Assembly (NCBI GenBank): GCA_964572145.1
Contig: CAZNES010000011.1
Coordinates: forward strand, 8,687 to 72,686
Reading direction: 5' to 3'
DNA length: 64,000 nt
Source: an uncultured Syntrophobacteraceae bacterium
GTDB lineage: Bacteria; Desulfobacterota; Binatia; UBA9968
Shown here: positions 3,606-48,320 of the stretch, in pieces
Numbering within the stretch: the stretch's first letter is position 1
Layout: the number at the start of each line of letters is the position of its first letter
Made by a program: the position numbers and the translations under genes
The notes under the pieces: generated by a model
The model's database searches: none
Told to the model about the DNA's origin: nothing
Seen by the model: the letters and a program-made list of their open reading frames with translations, nothing else

Positions 3606-4163
3606 TCAGCTCCCCCGCTCGCTGCTCGTTTCTCTTATCACCCACGTGCGCGCCAGTGAATCGTGCCATCCCCTTTTCTCCCGGTTCCATAGAATGCGGA
3701 GAAAACCGAACAGCAGAGGCGCGCTAAGCAGCGCAACCAGCCAGCGGATCAGCGCCTGGCCATACCCGATACGCTCCTGGCCCGCGCCCACGACGCGCAG
3801 GCCGAACAGCCATTTGCCGACGGTTCTCCCGTCGAGACCATGAAGCACGACAAAATAGCCGCAGACGAGAAAGATCCATGCGCCGAGAAGCGCAGGCAAC
3901 GCTCCCTCAGCCGCTTCCCACGAGAGCGAGCGTTGGTGGGCGGCGAGTCCCACGCGGAAACCGAGCGCCGAGAGATAAAAGAGCAGCACAGAGAAGAGGC
4001 ACAAGACAAAAACGTCCACGAGAATAGCAAAACAGCGTCGGAAAAAGCCGCCCCATGCGACCGCGCTGGCGCGCTCTTCCTCCGTGAGCCGCTCGTAGAG
4101 TCGATCGTACTCCCGCTCAATCAGCGCTTGGAGCGCCGCCACGTCGTTTGTTTCGGCTTCCAT
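3606..4163 (-). CDS. RDD-family membrane protein
   Basis: 185 aa with two or three transmembrane segments and the R..D..D arrangement. It is adjacent to and co-oriented with gshB. Confidence 0.55.
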   Translation of the reverse strand: MEAETNDVAALQALIEREYDRLYERLTEEERASAVAWGGFFRRCFAILVDVFVLCLFSVLLFYLSALGFRVGLAAHQRSLSWEAAEGALPALLGAWIFLVCGYFVVLHGLDGRTVGKWLFGLRVVGAGQERIGYGQALIRWLVALLSAPLLFGFLRILWNREKRGWHDSLARTWVIRETSSERGS

Positions 4164-4216: not shown

Positions 4217-4993
4217 TTATCCCAGGTCGCCCCATAGAAACTGCGCCAGCGACAACGCTGCCACGGCGGCGGTTTCCGTGCGCAAAATTCTTTTTCCCAA
4301 GCGCACGGACTGAAAGCCGCTCTGCTCCGCTTCGGCGACTTCATCCGGGGCGAAGCCGCCTTCCGGCCCGATCACGAGGAGGAGCGAATCGAGGCTCGGC
4401 TTCTCTTCTCGCAGGCGCGCCAAACCGCGGGCCGTCTCATTTTCCCAAAAAATGAGCTTCAGATCGCAGGGCCACGGCCGCCGCACCAAATCGGAAAAAT
4501 CCATGACGTTTAGAATTTCCGGAACGCGGACGCGGCCGGACTGCTTGGCCGCGCTGAGAGCGATGCGCCCCCAGCGCGCCGCCTTTTTCTCACGCGCCGC
4601 GGCGTCGAGCTTGGGCACCGTACGCCGGCAGAGAAACGGCGCGATCGCCGACGCGCCGAGCTCCGTCGCCTTCTCGACGATCCAGTCGAGCTTGTCGCCT
4701 TTTCCCAGCGCCTGCGCCAATGTGATCCGAACGGAAGACTCGCGCTCGGGCCGGCAGGAATTTAAAATCTTGATTTCTCCCCGGCCGTCGGTGAACGAGC
4801 GAATGACCCCTTCATGTTCCCAACCTTCGTCGTCGAACAGAGTCACCCGATCGCCGGGCCCCAGGCGCAGCACTTTCCTCATATGTTCGAGCTCCGGACC
4901 GGCAATCGTAGCGCCGTCACCGTGGAAAATTTTTTTCGAGACAAAGAAACGCGCCACGATCAGCTCTTCTTTTGCAGCAGCAGCGTCACCCAT
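4217..4993 (-). CDS. rsmE: 16S rRNA (uracil1498-N3)-methyltransferase
   Basis: ARFFV N-terminus, the C-terminal SPOUT-like GPEGGF motif and the conserved position downstream of prmA. The start codon is uncertain; an ATG at 4993 or an upstream GTG is possible. The long 329-aa ORF is an artefact. Confidence 0.8.
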   Translation of the reverse strand: MGDAAAAKEELIVARFFVSKKIFHGDGATIAGPELEHMRKVLRLGPGDRVTLFDDEGWEHEGVIRSFTDGRGEIKILNSCRPERESSVRITLAQALGKGDKLDWIVEKATELGASAIAPFLCRRTVPKLDAAAREKKAARWGRIALSAAKQSGRVRVPEILNVMDFSDLVRRPWPCDLKLIFWENETARGLARLREEKPSLDSLLLVIGPEGGFAPDEVAEAEQSGFQSVRLGKRILRTETAAVAALSLAQFLWGDLG

Positions 4994-5832
4994 TCCTTCT
5001 CCCGGCGCTGGCGGATCAGGGAGAACGGCGCGGGGGAGAACCGGCTCGCCACCTGGCGTGCCTTGGGCTGCAAGATCCCGGAGAGAACGAGGTAGCCACC
5101 GTCGGCAACCCGCTCTTCGAGCGCGGCGGCGAGGTCGAAGATCGTCTCCGCGGTAAGATTCGCGACCACGACGCCGAACGATTCCTCGACGCGGTCCAGC
5201 CTGCAATTCGCGATTTTGATTCTGCGCTCGACGCCGTTCACCCGGACGTTGCCGCGCGCGACCTTGAGCGCCGTGGGATCGTTGTCGAGCGCCATGACGC
5301 TGTCGGCGCCCATCTTCGCCAAAGCGATGGCCAAAATTCCCGAACCGGTGCCGACGTCGAGAGCGTTTATCTCATCGCCGTTGAAGCGCCCGATCAGATG
5401 TTCCAGGAACTCGAGACAACACCGCGTCGTCGCGTGCGTTCCGGTGCCGAACGCCATGCCCGGTTCTATCGTGATGACGTGGCGGCGGCGCGTCTCGGGC
5501 GGCTCCACCCACGGAGGCGTGATCCACAGCGACCGCCCCACCTTGTGCGGAGAAAAAAAGCGCCGCCACGAATTCGCCCAATTTTTTTCCTTCAACAACC
5601 TCCAGGTGAGCGGATGGTCGCTGAAGCCGGGATAGATTTTGCGGATGTCGCGGAGAAAACGGTGAATCTCGCGCTTGAGCGCCGCAGTCCGCGGCGAACG
5701 GACAAAAAATGCCCGCACCTCGCTGCGCGTGAGAACGACGCCGGGAGAACCTCGCTCGATGAGGAAATTCGCGATCGCGTCGAGGGCCGGCGGAGGGGCC
5801 CTGAGAGAGAGTTGCAGCCACGAGACAGGCAC
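4960..5832 (-). CDS. prmA: ribosomal protein L11 methyltransferase
   Basis: 290 aa. The SAM-binding motif LDVGTGSGILAIAL and the PrmA N-terminal domain. It forms a prmA-rsmE pair. Confidence 0.88.
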   Translation of the reverse strand: MPVSWLQLSLRAPPPALDAIANFLIERGSPGVVLTRSEVRAFFVRSPRTAALKREIHRFLRDIRKIYPGFSDHPLTWRLLKEKNWANSWRRFFSPHKVGRSLWITPPWVEPPETRRRHVITIEPGMAFGTGTHATTRCCLEFLEHLIGRFNGDEINALDVGTGSGILAIALAKMGADSVMALDNDPTALKVARGNVRVNGVERRIKIANCRLDRVEESFGVVVANLTAETIFDLAAALEERVADGGYLVLSGILQPKARQVASRFSPAPFSLIRQRREKEWVTLLLQKKS

Positions 5833-6008: not shown

Positions 6009-7346
6009 ATGGCACACATAGTTCCCTTTCGTGGTGTTCTCTACAACCCGAAAAAAATTTCCGATCCTTCCAAGGTGATCGCGCCGCCTTACGACGTGAT
6101 TTCCTCGGAGGATCAAGAGAAGCTCTACCGCCGCTCGCCTTACAACGTCGTGCGGTTGATCCTAAATCAGGAGCCGGAGCCGTATGAAGTTGTCGCGCGG
6201 TTGTTCGAAGAGTGGCAGAAAGAAGGAGTCCTCATTCGCGACGAAATGCCGGCGATTTACTTTCTCACCCATCGTTACGCGCTGAAGGACGGAAAAGAAA
6301 AGGAGCGCAAGGGGTTCATCGCCCTGGCGCGGATCGAAGACTTTTCCAGCGGCGCGATCCGACCGCACGAGGCGACGCTCGCGGCGCCGAAGGAAGACCG
6401 GCTTAAGCTCATGCTCGCTTGCCACGCCAACTTGAGCCCGATCTTCGCGCTCTACTCCGAGCCGAAACAGCTCATCAATCGACTGATGGCGGAGCATGTG
6501 CGGGGAAAACCGCCGGACGTCGAGGTCAAAGAAGACAAAGGCGGGAGCTGCCGTCTCTGGCGCGTGACCGACGCCGAGCTCGTTCGCATGGCCCGTCAGC
6601 AGATGGAGCAGCCGCCGCTTTTGATCGCCGACGGCCATCACCGCTACGAGGCGGCGATGAACTATCGCGAGCACATGCGCCGGGAAAACCCCCGATTCAG
6701 CGGCCGCGAGGCGTTCAACTACGTCATGATGTATTTCGCCAACATGAAAGACGAGGGGGTGACGATTCTCCCGACGCACCGGCTGGTGCGCTCATTCCCA
6801 GCCATCGCTTTTCGCGAGCTCGAAGAATCGCTGATGCGCTATTTCTACATCGAGCCCTATCCCAAAAACGACGAGGGCCGGCGCTCGTTCTTGCGCGCGC
6901 TTCAGAGCGGAAGGAAAAAACACCGGCTCATCGGCGCATCTTTCAAGCGCGATCCGCGCTATTTGATTCTGCGGCTCAAGAACAAGAGGTTCATGCAGCG
7001 GCTCGCCGGCGACTTGAGCGCGCCGCTGCAAGAGCTGGACGTGAGCGTGCTGCACCGTCTCATTCTCGATCACATCCTGGGTCTCAAGCCCGAGGAGCAG
7101 GTCGCGGAAGGTGCGATCAGCTATTCGCAGGACGAAGAGAAAGTTTTACAGATGCTGGATAAGGAAGATTACCAGGCCGCGTTTATTTTAAATCCGCCCA
7201 AGGCGGAAGAGATCCTTGCTATCAGCGGCGCCGGCAAGACGATGCCGCAGAAGACGACCTATTTTTATCCGAAGCTCATCGACGGGCTGGTAATCAACAA
7301 ACTCGATGCGGAAGAACAGATAGAAGAGGGGCCAGCAGGCAGTTGA
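6009..7346 (+). CDS. DUF1015-family protein
   Basis: 445 aa. MAHIVPFRGVLYNP... with the length and conserved blocks typical of DUF1015. Confidence 0.7.
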   Translation: MAHIVPFRGVLYNPKKISDPSKVIAPPYDVISSEDQEKLYRRSPYNVVRLILNQEPEPYEVVARLFEEWQKEGVLIRDEMPAIYFLTHRYALKDGKEKERKGFIALARIEDFSSGAIRPHEATLAAPKEDRLKLMLACHANLSPIFALYSEPKQLINRLMAEHVRGKPPDVEVKEDKGGSCRLWRVTDAELVRMARQQMEQPPLLIADGHHRYEAAMNYREHMRRENPRFSGREAFNYVMMYFANMKDEGVTILPTHRLVRSFPAIAFRELEESLMRYFYIEPYPKNDEGRRSFLRALQSGRKKHRLIGASFKRDPRYLILRLKNKRFMQRLAGDLSAPLQELDVSVLHRLILDHILGLKPEEQVAEGAISYSQDEEKVLQMLDKEDYQAAFILNPPKAEEILAISGAGKTMPQKTTYFYPKLIDGLVINKLDAEEQIEEGPAGS

Positions 7347-7376: not shown

Positions 7377-7613
7377 ATGAGGTGCCGGGTCTGCCATTCT
7401 AAGATGGTAAAAAAGAAAATCACAGTTGATTTACGTGTTGGCGAAGACCTGCTCGTCGTCGAACAAGTCCCGGCAACCGTGTGCGAGCACTGTGGAGACA
7501 GAGTGTTTGCTCCCACGGTCGCTAAAAAACTCCAGGCTCTGGGCAGACGGCGCAAAAAGGCGCCGCGAACCCTGAGAGTGCCGGTCTTCTCCATGGATGA
7601 GGTCTCGCCGTAA
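7377..7613 (+). CDS. YgiT-type zinc-ribbon protein (MqsA N-domain-like)
   Basis: 78 aa. MRCRVCHS...VPATVCEHCGD: two CxxC pairs with the spacing of the YgiT-type zinc finger. Confidence 0.6.
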   Translation: MRCRVCHSKMVKKKITVDLRVGEDLLVVEQVPATVCEHCGDRVFAPTVAKKLQALGRRRKKAPRTLRVPVFSMDEVSP

Positions 7614-7652: not shown

Positions 7653-7811
7653 ATGTGGTTGGACTACGACGAGAAGGTCGATGTTCTATACTTGCATTTT
7701 GAAGACCGACCAGGCTCAACACACAGCCAAATGCGGGATGACGGCGTCATCCTCGACTACAAGGGCCGCCGATTAGTAGGTGTCACCATCCTTGAGGCCT
7801 CCCAGCGATAA
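7653..7811 (+). CDS. DUF2283-family small protein
   Basis: The 52-aa ORF (shorter than the 60-aa track cutoff) MWLDYDEKVDVLYLHFEDRPGSTHSQMRDDGVILDYKGRRLVGVTILEASQR matches the DUF2283 pattern (YD.E.D.LYI...GVILDYD..G.LVGIEIL.AS.R). Confidence 0.65.
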   Translation: MWLDYDEKVDVLYLHFEDRPGSTHSQMRDDGVILDYKGRRLVGVTILEASQR

Positions 7812-7980
7812 GGAAGATTACCAGGCGGCGTTTATTTTAAATCCGACTCAGCCGGAAGAGATTATCGCCGTCACCGGCGCCGGCGAGAAGATGCCGCAGA
7901 AAACGACCTACTTCTATCCCAAGCTGATCTCTGGATTGGTGATCAACAAAATCGATCCGGCGGAAGAGATGCCGGAGTGA
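7807..7980 (+). pseudogene. diverged duplicate of the 3' end of the DUF1015 gene (gene fragment)
   Basis: KEDYQAAFILNPTQPEEIIAVTGAGEKMPQKTTYFYPKLISGLVINKIDPAEE parallels the C-terminus of the 6009-7346 product. The DNA at 7163-7330 versus 7809-7980 is roughly 80% identical. Confidence 0.8.
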
Positions 7981-33675: not shown

Positions 33676-34788
33676 ATGCTGGCAACCAGAATCGTCCAGA
33701 AAGAGGGCACTTTTTACTTCGCCGCCGTGAAGGCGAGCGAATTGCTGGACCGGGTGCGTTTCACCAGCCGCTACTACTTCGAGGGCGAGGAGATCGCGCC
33801 GGACGACACCGGGGACGACGAGGTCGCGCGCTTCATCTCCGGCATCGAAAAGACCGAAAGGTCGTTCCAACGCGTCCTGAACCAACGCAAGGTAAAACAG
33901 ATCGTCAACTTTTACGAAACGGCCGTGAGCCAGCCTTTGATCCCCGGCACGATCCTTTTGTTCACCGAGGAGACCTTGGGCTTTCGCCGGCAGGACGGCT
34001 CCGACACCATCGGATTTGTAAGCGAACCGAAGGGCAAGTTTTTGATCATCGACGGACAGCACCGGCTGGCGGCGCTCCATTTCTTTAGCCAGAAACATCC
34101 CGAGACGGCCAAGCAGCTCGACGTCCCGTGCGTTCTGTTCGACGGCAAAAGCGCGGACTTCGCCACCGAGATGTTTGTCATCATCAACTCGACGCACACG
34201 CGGATCAACAAGTCGCACCTGGTCGATCTCTACGAGCGGGTCTCGTGGGAAACGCCGGAGAAAAAACTCGCGGCAAAAGTGGTCAACCTGCTCTACGAAG
34301 AGAGCGACTCGCCGCTCCGCTACCGCATCAACCGGCTGGGCGGACGCAGCCGCCAGGAAAAATGGATCTTACAGTCGGAGCTTTTCAACGAGATCTACAA
34401 AGTGGTGCTCAAGAACCGCAAATTTTTCGACGAGCATTTCCAGTTCCGCTCCGACTACGTGTACGCGCTGGTCCGGGATTATTTCAAGGCGGTGCGCGAC
34501 GTGATGCATTCGGTCTGGGGCGACAACGAGCGCTACATGTTCACGCGCGACGTTACGCTCAAAGCGCTCATCCGCGTCTTCGGCGACTTGATCCGCAACC
34601 GGAACGTCTTCCGCGCCTGGGACGAGAAGCGCGACCCGCGGATATTCATGGGCGTGATACGGCCGTGGCCCGAGCTGGCGCGGGAATTTCGCGCCGAGGG
34701 ATTCTACGAGCGCTTTCCCGCCAAGGGACAGGTCGAGCGCGTCCGGCGCATTCATTTGAAGTTGAGCCAAGCGATCGGCTACGCGTGA
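33676..34788 (+). CDS. DGQHR-domain protein (DndB-like, ParB/Srx fold)
   Basis: 370 aa. The LIIDGQHRLAALHF motif is diagnostic of the DGQHR/DndB family. No dnd or ssp genes are adjacent. Confidence 0.7.
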   Translation: MLATRIVQKEGTFYFAAVKASELLDRVRFTSRYYFEGEEIAPDDTGDDEVARFISGIEKTERSFQRVLNQRKVKQIVNFYETAVSQPLIPGTILLFTEETLGFRRQDGSDTIGFVSEPKGKFLIIDGQHRLAALHFFSQKHPETAKQLDVPCVLFDGKSADFATEMFVIINSTHTRINKSHLVDLYERVSWETPEKKLAAKVVNLLYEESDSPLRYRINRLGGRSRQEKWILQSELFNEIYKVVLKNRKFFDEHFQFRSDYVYALVRDYFKAVRDVMHSVWGDNERYMFTRDVTLKALIRVFGDLIRNRNVFRAWDEKRDPRIFMGVIRPWPELAREFRAEGFYERFPAKGQVERVRRIHLKLSQAIGYA

Positions 34789-35167
34789 GGCATGTTACAG
34801 CCGCGCCCCAACTCGAAATAAGGTTTCATGATCGGTCCCTCCTAACCACGCTTGGCTCGCGCTGAATTAGCGTTTGATCCTGCCCGCCGTCTTGGAGTAT
34901 GAATTGCAGCATCTTTCCAATTGAGCGTTGAGCACAGTTCCTATGGCTGATCCAAACGCGCGCCGGCCAAGACAGGCTGCGGGTGGTTAGTGAAATAGGA
35001 CGCTCCATCCGGCGGTGTTTGGCGACCAGCAGGTTGTTGACAAGTTGGAGTAGCTTACGGATATTGCAACCGATTCGGATCTGGGCAGTGGAGCCGTGTT
35101 AGGAGATAGGCGGACCGGCATTTGTCGCCTGGAAAAGCGGGTCACTTAATAGCCGTTACCAAGTGCC

Positions 35168-35884
35168 GTGAAGAATCAATACGTCGGCGATATCAACGAT
35201 TTCCGAAAGTACAGTCTGATCCGGGTTCTTACCGGGGAAGGCGAACTCCGGTCGGGCGTCTGTTGGATGTTGACTGCCAATGACGGGCGCACTGATGGCC
35301 GGTTCCTTCGCTATCTGCAACAGCCGGATCACTGGAGGAGCCTCGACAAGAAAACATTTGAGGCCATGCGCCGAATCGTCCATGACCATAGGCGACGCGA
35401 CGTATCCTTGATAGAAGGCTCCGGTGTCCTTCCGAATGCGAAGTTCTTTTCTCCAATCCTTGACGACGACCGCGAACGCCGAGCCTTATATTTTGCGAAC
35501 GCCAAGTCGGCGCTTTGTGGAACACAACTCTTGTTTTTCGATCCTGACAACGGGCTCGAAGTAAAGTCAGTACCGCTCGGGCGAAAACGTTCTAGAAAGT
35601 ACCTCTACTGGTCTGAACTCCCTACGTTTTCTGAGGCCGGTTGTTTCATTCTGATTTACCAGCACTTTCCACGCGAGGATCGTGCTTCCTACATTCAACG
35701 GCGTGTTGTTGAAATTTGGCAGGCTTTGGGCGATGTCTCTGTTTACTCCTTTCGAACGGCCTACGTTGGCTTTTTCCTCGCGGCGCAGTCTCCGTCTATG
35801 CGTCGTTTCTTTCGAGAGCGCGTCAAAATCCTTGAACGCCGTTGGAATGGACAGTTTCAGGTGCAATACCATGGTAACGGCTAA
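35168..35884 (+). CDS. hypothetical protein, possible PD-(D/E)xK-like nuclease partner of the DGQHR protein
   Basis: 238 aa with a GTG start. No recognised family. LLFFDPDNGLEVKS can be read as PD...ExK. By eye its GC is lower than that of the flanking core genes. Confidence 0.4.
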   Translation: MKNQYVGDINDFRKYSLIRVLTGEGELRSGVCWMLTANDGRTDGRFLRYLQQPDHWRSLDKKTFEAMRRIVHDHRRRDVSLIEGSGVLPNAKFFSPILDDDRERRALYFANAKSALCGTQLLFFDPDNGLEVKSVPLGRKRSRKYLYWSELPTFSEAGCFILIYQHFPREDRASYIQRRVVEIWQALGDVSVYSFRTAYVGFFLAAQSPSMRRFFRERVKILERRWNGQFQVQYHGNG

Positions 35885-36027
35885 CAACACGCCCCACCCA
35901 GACGCGCGCGAAGCGCCGTGCCAATTCTCAGTGCCGTCGGTGCGCGCCGGTGGGCGTGGACGTTAACCGGCAGAGTCAACGTGGCGCAACCTATGGATCG
36001 GGCGCGCACTGAAAGGCGGAAGCGGTG

Positions 36028-36159
36028 ATGAAGATCGACATCGACAAACTCAGCGAAGAAGAACTGATCGATCTGAACAACAACGAGGAAGATAAGAGAG
36101 CGGGACTCTTATTCTCGACGTGCAGCGTGGCACCGGCAAGCAGCGCTGTTATTGCTTAG
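36028..36159 (+). pseudogene. truncated duplicate of the 5' end of the 36548-36868 gene
   Basis: MKIDIDKLSEEELIDLNNNEEDKRAG... compared with MKIDIDKLSEDELIDLNNRIVV... at 36548. The DNA identity over the first ~60 nt is very high before the sequences diverge. Confidence 0.6.
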
Positions 36160-36254
36160 TATCGGGCGCTGAAGCACGGCGCCGGACACATTTCAAAAGA
36201 TCGCGCATGCAAGGTAGAATAAGATGGTTGTTAAGTTGTCCGAATAATCACAGG

Positions 36255-36551
36255 ATGGCCGATATGAATTCGAAAAAAAAATCTACGAAAAAACAATTTT
36301 CCGAAGAAGAAATCGATAAAATTGTAGAATCGCAAGTTGAGAAGGATTCAGCTTGGGGAAAACCCATTAAAGTCCGCAGAGCAAAAACGGCTGCTTTGTC
36401 TCTTCCGGCGAAGTTGGCTGCCCGTGCTGTTTTTCTGGCGAGATTACACAGCGAGAAAAACGTCGAGGAATGGTTGGCGCGCATTATTAAAGAGCGCGTG
36501 GAGCTGGAAGAGGTCGCTTTCAGTCAAGCAAAGCGCGCTATGTTGCGATGA
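36255..36551 (+). CDS. small CopG/ribbon-helix-helix-like protein (putative antitoxin-like)
   Basis: 98 aa in AT-rich DNA. The C-terminal strand-helix-helix pattern (LSLPAKLAARAVFLARLH...EEWLARIIKER). Its stop overlaps the next ATG (ATGA). Confidence 0.4.
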   Translation: MADMNSKKKSTKKQFSEEEIDKIVESQVEKDSAWGKPIKVRRAKTAALSLPAKLAARAVFLARLHSEKNVEEWLARIIKERVELEEVAFSQAKRAMLR

Positions 36552-36868
36552 AAATCGACATCGACAAGCTCAGCGAAGATGAACTGATCGATCTGAACAA
36601 CAGGATCGTGGTGCGCCTGCGGTTCTTGAGTCAGATGCGCGCGCACTCGCAGATGCTGGACTTCAAGATCGGCGATCGCGTCGCTTTTCAGCCGGAAGGG
36701 AGTCCGCGCCTGGTTGGAATGCTCACTCGCTACAATCGGAAAACGGTCACGGTCATCACCGACAGCGGACAGCACTGGAACGTGGCGCCGGGGCTTCTAC
36801 GCAAGGCAGCGTCTCCCGATCACGCGGAGACCGGCCACGCGAAGGTAGTTCGACTGAGAAAGGAATGA
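36548..36868 (+). CDS. hypothetical 106-aa protein (coiled N-terminus plus small beta domain), translationally coupled to the upstream RHH-like gene
   Basis: ORF with an ATGA overlap to the upstream gene. Its N-terminus is duplicated at 36028. Confidence 0.4.
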   Translation: MKIDIDKLSEDELIDLNNRIVVRLRFLSQMRAHSQMLDFKIGDRVAFQPEGSPRLVGMLTRYNRKTVTVITDSGQHWNVAPGLLRKAASPDHAETGHAKVVRLRKE

Positions 36869-36937
36869 TCGAGGCCATGAGCGAGCTTCCTTAGCGCTTA
36901 CCTGGACAACGATAGATCAGGGCGGTATTATCCTGCT

Positions 36938-37168
36938 ATGAGCAAGACAGCAGACGATCTCCTGACTAAGGCTAAGCGACTTTCCACTACCGAACGGGCC
37001 GACCTCGCCGCCGCGTTGCTCGCCAGCCTGGATGGTGAGCCTGAGGGGGACGTTGAAGCCGCATGGGCCGCCGAGATTCAGCGGCGTGCCGAGCGTGTGA
37101 GGTCTGGCGAAGCGAAAGGCCGACTTTGGTCCGAGGTTCGCAAACGCCTTGAGCGTCGGAGAGGATGA
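36938..37168 (+). CDS. addiction-module antitoxin (putative addiction module component family, ParD-like role)
   Basis: 76 aa. TTERADLAAALLASLDG...AWAAEIQRRAERV is the typical small acidic antitoxin pattern. Its stop overlaps the toxin ATG. Confidence 0.6.
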   Translation: MSKTADDLLTKAKRLSTTERADLAAALLASLDGEPEGDVEAAWAAEIQRRAERVRSGEAKGRLWSEVRKRLERRRG

Positions 37169-37482
37169 GCCCACGCATTATCGTCCTCGACGAGGCGGAG
37201 GACGAACTGATCGAAGCGCAAAAGTGGTACGAGACTCAGCGCTCCGGTCTTGGCCAGGAATTCAGACATGCGATCGACGAGGCGATGGAACGCCTTCTGA
37301 ATGCGCCGCTTGCTGCTTCGCCAATCGTCAACGTTCCCACCTCCATCGGCGCGCGAAGAATTCTGGTCAAACGGTTCCCATATTCCATTGTTTTCATCCA
37401 TCATGACGAGGATCTCTGGGTCATTGCGTTTGCCCATCACCGCCGACGGCCGAGCTATTGGCGCGAACGGCTAAAGCCGTAG
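37165..37482 (+). CDS. type II toxin, RelE/ParE family
   Basis: 105 aa. The ParE-like hallmarks ...ILVKRFPYSIVFIHHDEDLWVIAFAHHRRRP. Confidence 0.7.
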   Translation: MSPRIIVLDEAEDELIEAQKWYETQRSGLGQEFRHAIDEAMERLLNAPLAASPIVNVPTSIGARRILVKRFPYSIVFIHHDEDLWVIAFAHHRRRPSYWRERLKP

Positions 37483-37570
37483 CTACTCGCGAGTGACTGA
37501 CAGCGATCGGAATGGATTAGGCGTGCTGTGGTTATCCGCTCCCCAGTTCACAGTAGCGTTGGCGTCGGCC

Positions 37571-37894
37571 TCAAGACACCTTCGCGCCCGCATTCACCGT
37601 TTTTTCCAGCGTCAGGACAACGACGCGGCCGTCGTCTGATGAAGCGGCCAACACCATTCCCTGGCTTTCCAAGCCGCGCAGCGTAGCCGTTTCCAGATTC
37701 GCCACCACGACGACTTGTTTCCCGACCAACTCTTCCGGTTGATAGTGGGCGCGGATGCCGGCGACGATCTGCCGCTCTTCCGAGCCCAAGTCCACTTTGA
37801 GGACGAGCAGTTTGTCGGCGTTCGGATGCGCCTCGGCGCTTTTCACGACGCCGACGCGGAGCTCGAGCTTTCTGAATTCATCGATGGTGATCAT
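37571..37894 (-). CDS. tRNA-binding protein (CsaA / EMAP-II / MetRS-C-terminal-like domain)
   Basis: 108 aa from the M at MITIDEFRKLELRVGVVKSAEAHPNADKLLVLKVDLG..., which is the OB-fold tRNA-binding domain. The upstream 80 aa of the track ORF are not supported. Confidence 0.75.
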   Translation of the reverse strand: MITIDEFRKLELRVGVVKSAEAHPNADKLLVLKVDLGSEERQIVAGIRAHYQPEELVGKQVVVVANLETATLRGLESQGMVLAASSDDGRVVVLTLEKTVNAGAKVS

Positions 37895-38027
37895 CTTCGA
37901 CTGCCTTTCTGGACCGAGTGTTGTGGAGCAAGATAGCAAAATGGCGGCTTCAAGAATAGCTGTGGATCTTTTAAACTTGTAAACTAAACTCGGCGGCGTT
38001 AAAGTTTTTGCGGCCTCTGGAGGAACA

Positions 38028-40928: not shown

Positions 40929-41004
40929 GGGGCCGTAGCTCAGCTGGGAGAGCGTCGCGTTCGCAACGCGAAGGTCAGGGGTTCGACTCCCCTCGGCTCC
41001 ACCA
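40929..41004 (+). tRNA. tRNA-Ala (CGC)
   Basis: GGGGCCGTAGCTCAGCTGGGAGAGCGTCGCGTTCGCAACGCGAAGGTCAGGGGTTCGACTCCCCTCGGCTCCACCA. The G3:U70 identity pair is present, the anticodon is CGC and CCA is encoded. Confidence 0.9.
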
Positions 41005-42335: not shown

Positions 42336-42411
42336 CTAACCGTAGCTCAGTTGGGAGTGCGCTAGAATCACGCTCTAGAGGTCGGGGGTTCGACTCCTCT
42401 CGGCTCCACCA
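42336..42411 (+). other. tRNA-like chimera / pseudo-tRNA (Val-CAC-type anticodon arm, tRNA-Ala-type 3' end, non-pairing acceptor 5' strand)
   Basis: The D arm GTAGCTCAGTTGGGAG, the anticodon arm CTAGA-ATCACGC-TCTAG (CAC) and the T arm plus 3' end GGGGGTTCGACTCCTCTCGGCTCCACCA differ by only one nucleotide from the tRNA-Ala 3' end at 40973-41004. The 5' seven nucleotides CTAACCG cannot pair with CGGCTCC. Confidence 0.45.
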
Positions 42412-46542: not shown

Positions 46543-46563
46543 TCACGCCCGGCCGCGGCGCAG

Positions 46564-46782
46564 TCAAACCCGGCGAAACGGGAGGGTTCCGTTTTTAGAT
46601 ATCAGACGCCAAGTGTCGTCCGCATCATAGCTGACACGGACGACTTCGCCCGGTTCCAGATGAAATGATCGGTACTGGTTGAGAGGCGTTCCGGTGACGC
46701 GGCAAATTACCGACAGGATGGGAAAATTATGGCTGACGACGAGGAGCGTTTCGTCCGGACCATGGCGCCCACCGCGCCCCAA
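46564..46782 (-). pseudogene. diverged duplicate of the 3' end of the histidine-phosphatase gene (fragment)
   Basis: ETLLVVSHNFPILSVICRVTGTPLNQYRSFHLEPGEVVRVSYDADDTWRLISKNGTLPFRRV parallels the C-terminus of the 47706-48320 product. The DNA is roughly 78% identical. Confidence 0.8.
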
Positions 46783-46974: not shown

Positions 46975-47559
46975 TCAGTGCTTTTTCCCGATATCCACGA
47001 GAAACGAGACCAAGCGGGCCGGCTTCGTTGCTCCTGAACGTTTGGCGATCCGGATCTCTATCTCATTCAACCTCGACGCCACGCTCTGCTTCAAGATCGT
47101 AAGCTCTTCTTCCCTCGCAGCTAGAAGGAGATCTCTCTGTTTGATCTCGGAAAGCAGTTTTTCCAGCTCTCCACTGATCCTTTTCTCCAGCTCCTGCAGC
47201 TGGCTTTCTTTTGCGCATAAAGCGGCATACTTTTCATCCATCTTTTTCTCCCACCCGTCCAGATCCACCGCGCTCTCCTCTTCCAGGGCGATAAAGCTCT
47301 CGGGAAGATTTTGGCCGCCGCTTGTCGCGCTCACCTGCCTCTGCGCTTCGGCAATCTGTGAAAGAATATTCGACTCCACTACGCGAGCGCGGCCCGTCTC
47401 CTGTTTGAACTGCGACTCTATCTGTCCCAAGCGTAAAGCAACGTTTTCAACGAGCGCTTCTACTCTTTGCATCCGATTCTGAACGCCGTCGGAGATTTTT
47501 CCGGACTTTTTTTTACGCCCCTTCATGATGGCCTCCTCGTCTGCATGGACTTGGCCCAA
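46975..47559 (-). CDS. hypothetical coiled-coil protein
   Basis: 194 aa of heptad-rich sequence (LQELEKRISGELEKLLSEIKQRDLLLAAREEEL). No family recognised. It lies between the phosphatase gene and its duplicated 3' fragment. Confidence 0.45.
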   Translation of the reverse strand: MGQVHADEEAIMKGRKKKSGKISDGVQNRMQRVEALVENVALRLGQIESQFKQETGRARVVESNILSQIAEAQRQVSATSGGQNLPESFIALEEESAVDLDGWEKKMDEKYAALCAKESQLQELEKRISGELEKLLSEIKQRDLLLAAREEELTILKQSVASRLNEIEIRIAKRSGATKPARLVSFLVDIGKKH

Positions 47560-47705
47560 TTCAGCTGCAGGTCTTGTACCCGCGGCCAGTGGACCCTACG
47601 CAAAAACGGGAGGAGCATAGTCAAAGCCCGATTGAAATGCAAGGCGAGCGCAAGCCGCAATCAAACGGCCCTGCAAAGAAAGAAGTCAGGAACTGGAAAG
47701 CCGGG

Positions 47706-48320
47706 TCATTCCCGGCGCAGCGGGAGCTTGCCGTTCTCACGCATCACTCGCCATTCATCATCCCCGTTGTAGCTCAAGCGAACAACTCCGCCCGGCGCTA
47801 GATGATAGGTTCGGTACTGGTTAAGCGGAGTCCCGGTGATGTGGCAGATAACCGCCAGGATAGGAAAGTTGTGACTGACGACAACGAGGGTCTCTTCCGC
47901 ACGATGGCGTCGGACGATCCGGCGCATGCCGTCCCATGCCCGCTGCTCGACGTCGATCAATCTCTCGCCGCCGGGAATATCGGCGTCCGCGGGCGTCTCT
48001 CGCCACCGGCGAAGAAAATCGGGACGGGTCGCCTGAATCTCCGCAAAGGTGAGGCCCTCGATCTCGCCGTGATCGAGCTCGCGCAGGCTTTCTTCGATGG
48101 TGACGGCGAGGTTATGGAAGCGGCCGACGGCGCCGGCGGTCTGGAGCGCCCGTTTGAGCTGGCTCGAATAAATCGCGTCGATTTTCTCGCGGCTCAAGTC
48201 CAGCGCCGCGGCCTCCGCCTGCCTCAGCCCGACTTCGTTGAGCTCCAGGTCGGTCGATCCCTGGCATCTCTGCGCCAGATTCCAGTCGGTGGCCCCGTGC
48301 CGCAGCAAAAAAATCCGCAT
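47706..48320 (-). CDS. histidine-phosphatase (phosphoglycerate-mutase-like / CobC-like) family protein
   Basis: MRIFLLRHGATDWN is the RHG catalytic motif. 204 aa. Confidence 0.8.
   Translation of the reverse strand: MRIFLLRHGATDWNLAQRCQGSTDLELNEVGLRQAEAAALDLSREKIDAIYSSQLKRALQTAGAVGRFHNLAVTIEESLRELDHGEIEGLTFAEIQATRPDFLRRWRETPADADIPGGERLIDVEQRAWDGMRRIVRRHRAEETLVVVSHNFPILAVICHITGTPLNQYRTYHLAPGGVVRLSYNGDDEWRVMRENGKLPLRRE

Follow-up and report, generated by a model that had tools for sequence, protein, structure and literature searches.

The locus at 36028-36868 of the 64,000-nucleotide (nt) stretch analyzed here, referred to throughout as the window, is a decayed BrnT-type toxin-antitoxin (TA) cassette that abuts a host gene, rather than a TA pair formed by its two small genes, which encode proteins of 98 and 106 amino acids (aa). 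The explanation that accounts for the locus as a whole, to which a probability of roughly 0.8 is given, is that a brnT-brnA (brnTA) cassette inserted at the 5' end of the 106-aa gene and duplicated part of this target, that the toxin gene brnT was later lost, and that the orphan antitoxin gene left behind (termed brnA here) became coupled to the host gene. The locus is not a new kind of system, and ordinary TA decay describes it. Its interest lies in being a dated, stepwise record in which a selfish TA cassette entered, its toxin was lost and its antitoxin was, on this explanation, wired into the expression of a host gene, with a sister lineage preserving the intermediate stage.

Architecture of the locus

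The locus is framed by a direct repeat of 56 nt. Positions 36027-36082 and 36547-36602 are identical at 53 of 56 nt and are spaced 520 nt apart; a scan that tolerated up to three mismatches returned just these two sites, for an expectation of 0.00 from 100 shuffles. In the first copy, the ATG of the 106-aa gene and its first 18 codons give way to a junk tail; this copy matches the start of the intact gene in two other loci (L018 and L019) at 100% identity. The second copy carries three changes of the window lineage relative to the first copy and to these two loci. Between the copies lies a 464-nt insert with a guanine plus cytosine (GC) content of 0.476 (0.451 within brnA), as compared to 0.577 for the whole window, and the minimum of 0.385 at 36200-36399 stands against 0.55-0.66 in the surrounding DNA. 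The insert is foreign, low-GC DNA. The open reading frame (ORF) for the 98-aa protein (36255-36551) and that for the 106-aa protein (36548-36868) share the tetranucleotide ATGA, in which the TGA stop of the former lies over the start of the latter. A preliminary description of this DNA had already pointed to a truncated duplicate of about 60 nt, a markedly lower GC content at 36.1-36.6 kb and the ATGA overlap, and all three are borne out by the repeat scan, the composition and the ORFs.

An identical structure across the repeat is found in four independent assemblies (L001-L004), and therefore the arrangement is not an artefact of assembly; it recurs in the diverged sister lineage, represented by the contig L114. 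That assemblers do break at this point is indicated by L114 and L018, both of which end inside the repeat, and this is the sole observation that speaks for an artefact. Chance similarity, the case that the preliminary description had itself set against its reading of the upstream fragment, is ruled out by the shuffles and the four assemblies. Together, artefact and chance merit next to no credence.

The features of the locus, with the evidence for each, are as follows.

35968 to 36026, forward strand: native leader of the 106-aa gene, including a conserved Shine-Dalgarno (SD)-like motif GAAAGGCGGAAG (36011-36022), attached now only to the truncated copy
36027 to 36082, forward strand: repeat copy 1, the displaced 5' end of the 106-aa gene (ATG 36028 plus 18 codons), from the repeat scan
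36025/36028 to 36159, forward strand: junk ORF of 43/44 aa read through from copy 1, from the ORF list
36083 to 36100, forward strand: 18-nt filler, confined to the window lineage and absent from L114 in pairwise alignment
36101 to 36191, forward strand: left arm of the insert, common to L114 and to no other brnTA locus
36192 to 36220, forward strand: promoter-like site of the brnTA cassette, TTCAAA-17-TAGAAT, from a consensus scan
36224 to 36267, forward strand: brnT remnant of 44 nt, from tblastn with the BrnT of locus L006 and alignment to brnT of L114
36264 to 36551, forward strand: orphan BrnT-associated antitoxin gene ("brnA-like"), 95 aa, whose stop (36549-36551) overlaps the next ATG, from the neighborhoods of its homologues
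36547 to 36602, forward strand: repeat copy 2, the 5' end of the intact 106-aa gene, from the repeat scan
36548 to 36868, forward strand: intact 106-aa host gene, here without an SD motif of its own, from its homologues and predicted structure

The brnT remnant and the sister lineage

Within the window locus there is no intact gene for a toxin of PF04365 (BrnT_toxin), only the 44-nt remnant, in which the start of brnT, its final 10 codons and its stop survive. The start, ATG plus three codons, is the sequence ATGGTTGTTAAG at 36224-36235, while 36235-36267 encodes VVRIITGWPI*, nine of its ten residues being identical to the end of the L006 toxin (VVRIITGWPL*) by tblastn. When the window is aligned to L114, whose 84-aa brnT is intact, 211 nt of the gene prove to be missing. 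The deletion lies between AAGT microhomologies (36233-36236) and is out of frame, such that just a 7-codon ORF is left. The brnT stop still overlaps ATG 36264 as ATGA, the arrangement of a toxin-first overlapping operon, and the promoter-like stretch 36192-36220 is retained upstream of brnT in L005-L008, L107, L108 and L114.

The sister contig L114 (the contig of homologue P0122, from metagenome 3300011444) has the same stub, the same left junction without the 18-nt filler and the same right junction, along with an intact brnT of 84 aa. At its tail it overlaps with the beginning of L018, a contig of that metagenome which runs on through the 106-aa gene, a ParD/ParE-like pair and a gene for a tRNA-binding domain with 93% identity to the window. 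In the uninterrupted loci L034/L036, a homologue of the window leader is joined directly to the gene body; the window leader (35968-36027) is 85% identical to theirs, and is homologous to that of L114 as well. Because the two lineages share their junctions and the sister retains brnT, the order of events is insertion with a duplication of 54-56 nt, then the split of the lineages, and then deletion of brnT in the window lineage. Between the lineages, the ratio of nonsynonymous to synonymous substitution rates (dN/dS) is 0.10 for brnA (dS 0.27) and 0.32 for the 106-aa gene (dS 0.20).

The antitoxin and its family

The assignment of the 98-aa protein is drawn from its homologues, of which there are 290. 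Loci examined for gene neighborhood numbered 21 (L005-L008, L098-L113 and L114), from Blastocatellia, Syntrophobacteraceae, other "Deltaproteobacteria", Anaerolineales and Trueperaceae assemblies. At least 14 of the 21 have a full BrnT-like gene directly upstream of the antitoxin homologue, with a 4-nt overlap; in L006, for example, the homologue begins where an 83-aa PF04365 gene ends. The toxins of L114 and L006 match this family with an expectation value (E) of 1e-7. Judged by this neighborhood, the 98-aa protein is taken to be the antitoxin of a toxin-first BrnT-type cassette. Three of the loci (L101, L105, L109) have only remnants of brnT and three others (L100, L103, L111) have none, and toxin loss with retention of the antitoxin is accordingly a repeated event in this cassette family.

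The natural start of the window antitoxin is probably ATG 36264, which gives a protein of 95 aa identical to homologue P0121, rather than 36255 (98 aa), because it is at the former that the ATGA overlap with the brnT stop occurs. Its other end is unusual. The family typically ends in AKRAMS(L/H)RNGV, and among the 120 homologues listed the ending AKRAMLR* is found in the window protein and P0122 alone, making the window antitoxin 4 codons shorter than the family norm. The right junction therefore cut 4 codons from the antitoxin gene and took the host sequence G-ATG-A as its stop.

In nine of the 11 hosts checked, the cassette has a GC content of 0.45-0.49 against flanks of 0.52-0.59, the exceptions (L099 and L106) having flanks as low as the cassette. 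In three Blastocatellia loci (L098, L099 and L106) it lies between canonical attC sites (GTCTAAC...GTTAGAC) of about 92 nt, those of L099 being at 3623-3713, 4295-4387 and 5096-5187, and in these loci brnTA is a bona fide integron gene cassette. BrnT/BrnA is also listed among the TA systems of integron cassettes (PMC7370490). The antitoxin has no match among the plasmids of PLSDB.

The 106-aa gene and its proposed partnership

The 106-aa protein has 3428 close matches, most of them at least 79% identical, and its family forms 1464 clusters at 50% identity, which flags it as a widespread small protein; one relative is annotated as Candidatus Binatia. Its predicted structure (predicted local distance difference test, pLDDT, of 76) comprises an N-terminal helix (10-37) and a small β-barrel of the SH3/Tudor/KOW kind (strands 44-79), for which the best PDB matches are generic, at only E ~2e-3. 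The gene stands alone in its genomes and is unrelated to the antitoxin.

The alternative favored by the preliminary description is that the 98-aa protein, as a ribbon-helix-helix (RHH) antitoxin, and the 106-aa protein, as a toxin, constitute a working TA module coupled through ATGA. Both genes are small, neither protein belongs to a known family, and the re-use of an antitoxin with a new partner is conceivable in principle. The comparison with related genomes that the description had itself suggested finds that the two genes do not occur together outside this one insertion lineage. The antitoxin gene is beside the 106-aa gene in none of 89 other 106-aa loci (L009-L097), nor is a 5' duplicate nearby in any of them, and the 106-aa gene is present in none of the 20 antitoxin loci outside the window and sister lineages. 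A gene that stands by itself in many genomes, behind its own conserved leader, cannot encode a toxin dependent on the 98-aa protein. Moreover, the real toxin gene, brnT, is upstream in the sister lineage, the generic small barrel is no known toxin fold, and the ATGA overlap was made by the insertion junction that clipped 4 antitoxin codons, rather than being TA-style coupling of a pair. The module is therefore extremely improbable. What stands of the earlier proposal is that the locus is related to TA systems; the pairing of its two genes does not.

Nor does the 106-aa gene have another conserved partner. In many loci it lies between tctABC and a glyoxalase gene. A closely adjoining upstream ORF of any kind was present in just 17 of 73 loci, nine of these ORFs being tctC, and no partner family emerged among them; the ORF upstream in L019 and L020, considered as a candidate partner, looks like a wrong-frame artefact. 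One locus (L094) carries two tandem copies of the gene (1091-1408 and 1988-2305).

Of 66 distinct loci of the family, 51 have an SD-like motif ahead of the start, and a ACTGAAAGGCGGAAG-type leader is present in many of the 66. As a separate observation, conservation of this type of leader and of the first 18 codons extends to silent sites across L009-L097, where the neighboring genes differ, which hints at a regulatory element at the nucleotide level. A further observation concerns two proteins of 350-380 aa (P0297 and P0303), which contain five repeats of the 106-aa barrel and match PF00924, the MscS β-domain.

Observations that weigh against the proposed decay and re-use of the cassette

Several observations count against the explanation preferred here. 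The first concerns the identity of the proteins. The BrnT-like toxin scores 32.5 bits, slightly below the curated Pfam cut-off of 34.5 bits. The antitoxin family itself matches nothing in Pfam (BrnA_antitoxin included), NCBIfam or PADLOC, and has no PDB match by sequence or fold, so that its role is assigned by neighborhood alone. Specifically, 28 family members searched against Pfam returned nothing at E<=10, the family profile had 0 matches among PDB sequences, and Pfam, NCBIfam, PADLOC and PHROGs provided nothing usable for either the 98-aa or the 106-aa protein. The AlphaFold model of the antitoxin is mediocre (pLDDT 70), with helices at 14-27, 49-63 and 67-94, and has no significant fold match. 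An RHH reading of the antitoxin is plausible, and the window protein shows no match that would place it in the BrnA_antitoxin or RHH families. The strand-helix-helix C-terminus that had been ascribed to the 98-aa protein thus finds no backing from domain matches or from the model, and the profile and structure searches proposed at that time leave the protein without a domain; it is the neighborhoods of its homologues that tie it to BrnT, and hence to TA systems.

The second concerns the maintenance of brnA. In the window lineage the gene has acquired 4 replacements, including the near-invariant A25 and R63, against 4 silent changes, as compared to 2 replacements and 7 silent changes in the sister lineage. 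Although these counts are too small to carry much weight, they are suggestive of relaxed selection on brnA following toxin loss. In addition, L002 has A8 rather than A9 at the equivalent of 36272-36280, at the start of brnA, a difference due either to a frameshift variant or to an error in sequencing. The gene may, then, already be decaying rather than maintained.

The third concerns the stub. Copy 1 differs by 1 nt between the window and L114, and a dS of 0.2-0.27 in neighboring genes means that a dead stub would be expected to have drifted more. This near-identity could reflect gene conversion involving copy 2, or else a constraint that acts at the nucleotide level on the leader and the 18 codons after it.

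Mechanism of insertion

In the events proposed, a mobile brnT-brnA cassette of ~600 bp, with its own promoter and the toxin gene first, would have entered the 106-aa gene within its first 18 codons through illegitimate recombination. The insertion duplicated 54-56 nt of the target, leaving the old leader and 18 codons upstream as a dead stub and recreating the complete gene downstream, fused to the 3' end of brnA with the brnA stop over its ATG. It predates the split from the sister lineage, which keeps the whole cassette, and in the window lineage the 211-nt deletion at the AAGT microhomologies then destroyed brnT. As to the mechanism, illegitimate recombination with selection for events that spare the host gene is a tentative and loosely held choice.

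No integrase, transposase, terminal inverted repeat or attC site was found in or beside the insert. The 464 nt contain brnA and fragments only, with no recombinase gene and no inverted repeat at the ends of the kind that insertion sequences and transposons have, and the neighbors of the insert (a DGQHR-domain protein, a 238-aa protein without a family and the ParD/ParE-like pair) include no recombinase. For the left arm, L114 is the only one of the fetched loci with a homologue of 36083-36190; the arm has no significant fold (z = -1.3), and an Rfam search of 35500-37200 returned no match. The filler at 36083-36100 repeats the adjacent 36105-36120 imperfectly and in inverted orientation, forming a hairpin with it in the DNA fold; error-prone end joining or template switching typically leaves copies of this kind. 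The lengths of the duplications are also not fixed, being 54-56 nt here and 109-205 nt in three analogous events.

One of these again involves brnTA. L108, a Syntrophobacter assembly, has the cassette between two copies (527-635 and 1327-1435) of the 3' end of a thiamine pyrophosphate (TPP)-enzyme gene, a duplication of 109 nt with 89% identity, and in L005-L008 a TPP gene is followed by brnTA with no duplicate. In homology-facilitated illegitimate recombination (HFIR), one end is joined by homology and the other illegitimately (PMC3240628), and the arrangement in L005-L008 could represent the donor state for such a one-sided event. For the window event, no donor with brnA already beside the 106-aa gene was found among the loci.

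The remaining two lie within the window, at 3' gene ends, and are the DUF1015 and phosphatase loci to which the preliminary description had likened this 5' duplication. The DUF1015 gene, where the architecture is the same apart from the gene end involved, has a 164-nt, 82%-identical duplicate of its 3' end (7158-7321 and 7807-7970) around an insert of ~460 nt, which contains a 78-aa zinc-ribbon ORF (7377-7613) with a weak match to MqsA_antitoxin (E=0.001). The histidine-phosphatase gene, on the minus strand, has a 205-nt, 73%-identical duplicate of its 3' end (46563-46767 and 47705-47909) around an insert of ~940 nt with a 194-aa coiled-coil ORF (46975-47559, minus strand). It is tempting to view the four duplications (56, 164 and 205 nt in the 64-kb window, 109 nt in L108) as the signature of one uncharacterized insertion route that operates at gene termini with no recombinase gene of its own. 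This is unlikely; if true, foreign DNA would be inserted at gene termini while the target gene stays intact. A separate 33-nt repeat (40972-41004 and 42379-42411) was rejected as an insertion scar, as it comprises the similar 3' ends of tRNA-Ala (40929-41004) and tRNA-Val (42337-42407).

Direct repeats that restore a target gene are a hallmark of islands that target dusA and tRNA genes. The repeats might accordingly be the attL and attR sites of an integrative element of the dusA type that brought a replacement 5' end, with the integrase and most of the element deleted later. The location of the three variant bases in the functional copy, as in an element-borne copy, and the occurrence of three gene-end duplications in one 64-kb window are in keeping with this possibility. 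However, just 464 nt separate the repeats, neither an integrase nor any vestige of one is among them, and the sister lineage has the same short insert with near-identical repeats (1 difference in ~54 nt). Furthermore, brnA is cut within its coding sequence by the right junction, and the length of the duplication varies by event (56, 109, 164 and 205 nt). An integrative element is thus quite unlikely.

The occurrence of the same cassette between canonical attC sites in the three Blastocatellia loci raises another route, in which the integron integrase IntI placed it at a secondary site. The target junction, ...CTGAACAAC, does resemble the TAACAA of the attC R'' box. Against this, no RYYYAAC...GTTRRRY site exists in 35001-38000, the attC of the cassette is missing, the junction falls 4 codons before the brnA stop, and ~95-140 nt of unrelated sequence precede the normal 5' boundary of the cassette. 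IntI recombination is not known to duplicate its target, unlike the event seen here. Insertion by IntI is very unlikely on these grounds, and illegitimate recombination is retained as the working choice.

Expression and present role

In the window, the SD-like leader precedes the stub, and the 30 nt before the real ATG are brnA coding sequence without an SD-like motif. With its leader stranded at the stub, the 106-aa gene has lost its own ribosome-binding leader. Transcription would start at the native upstream promoter, at that of the cassette, or at both; the orphan antitoxin would be expressed from the predicted cassette promoter, and the 106-aa protein would be translated by termination-reinitiation at ATGA. 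Translation of the 106-aa gene is probably coupled to that of brnA, and this coupling would explain why brnA was retained after the loss of the toxin.

The activity of the promoter and the present role of the antitoxin, like the coupling, are inferred. BrnA alone is described as binding and repressing the brnTA promoter (Heaton 2012, as summarised in PMC10714953) and, by analogy, the host gene may now be subject to autoregulation by the antitoxin. Klebsiella has an abundance of orphan antitoxins (PMC7192599). The orphan antitoxin of the window could also neutralize incoming BrnT toxins, along the lines of the anti-addiction idea discussed in PMC7192599.

The locus therefore offers a testable case of a host gene whose translation probably depends on a leftover antitoxin gene. 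If this is true, a selfish antitoxin can become indispensable for expressing a host gene once it is fused to it stop-to-start with no host ribosome-binding site. Beyond this, the locus brings to light a family of antitoxins, with at least 290 clusters, whose partners are BrnT-like toxins and which current domain libraries fail to recognize.

Neighboring genes

Immediately downstream of the 106-aa gene is an intact TA pair, comprising an Unstab_antitox gene (PF09720, E=1e-14) at 36938-37168 and a ParE toxin gene (PF05016, E=2e-7) at 37165-37482. The two overlap by ATGA, have a promoter-like site at 36903-36931 and are kept in L018 with dN/dS of ~0.2. Upstream lie a gene for a DGQHR-domain (DndB/DpdB-like) protein (33676-34788; TIGR03187, E=1e-40) and one for a 238-aa protein without a family match (35168-35884). 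This stretch is absent from L114, which makes the region upstream of the 106-aa gene a variable island, and in L009 fragments of Mrr occupy its place.

Comparison with known systems

Islands of the dusA type, at 5' gene ends, and of the transfer RNA (tRNA) and transfer-messenger RNA (tmRNA) type, at 3' ends, share with the window locus the flanking of foreign DNA by repeats of a gene end with the gene left intact. The window insert differs in that it has no integrase, is 464 nt long and has a junction inside a cargo gene. Capture by HFIR or end joining is similar in its short foreign segment, lack of a recombinase gene, variable duplications, junction microhomology and templated filler. An anchor-based route is a better fit to L108 than to the window event.

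The BrnT/BrnA type II TA system of Brucella abortus (Heaton et al. 2012) is close in organization. The homologous cassettes are likewise toxin-first, with a BrnT-like toxin of ~84 aa, an antitoxin of ~99 aa that overlaps it by 4 nt and a promoter-like site of their own. In contrast, the antitoxin family matches neither the Pfam BrnA_antitoxin model nor any other, the window toxin is deleted, and the window antitoxin is missing 4 C-terminal residues. In this respect, the locus resembles the orphan antitoxins and decaying chromosomal TA systems in which an antitoxin and promoter-like site are kept while the toxin is lost. The window orphan is set apart from these by its stop-to-start fusion to a conserved host gene that lacks translation signals of its own, which provides a separate reason for keeping an orphan antitoxin.

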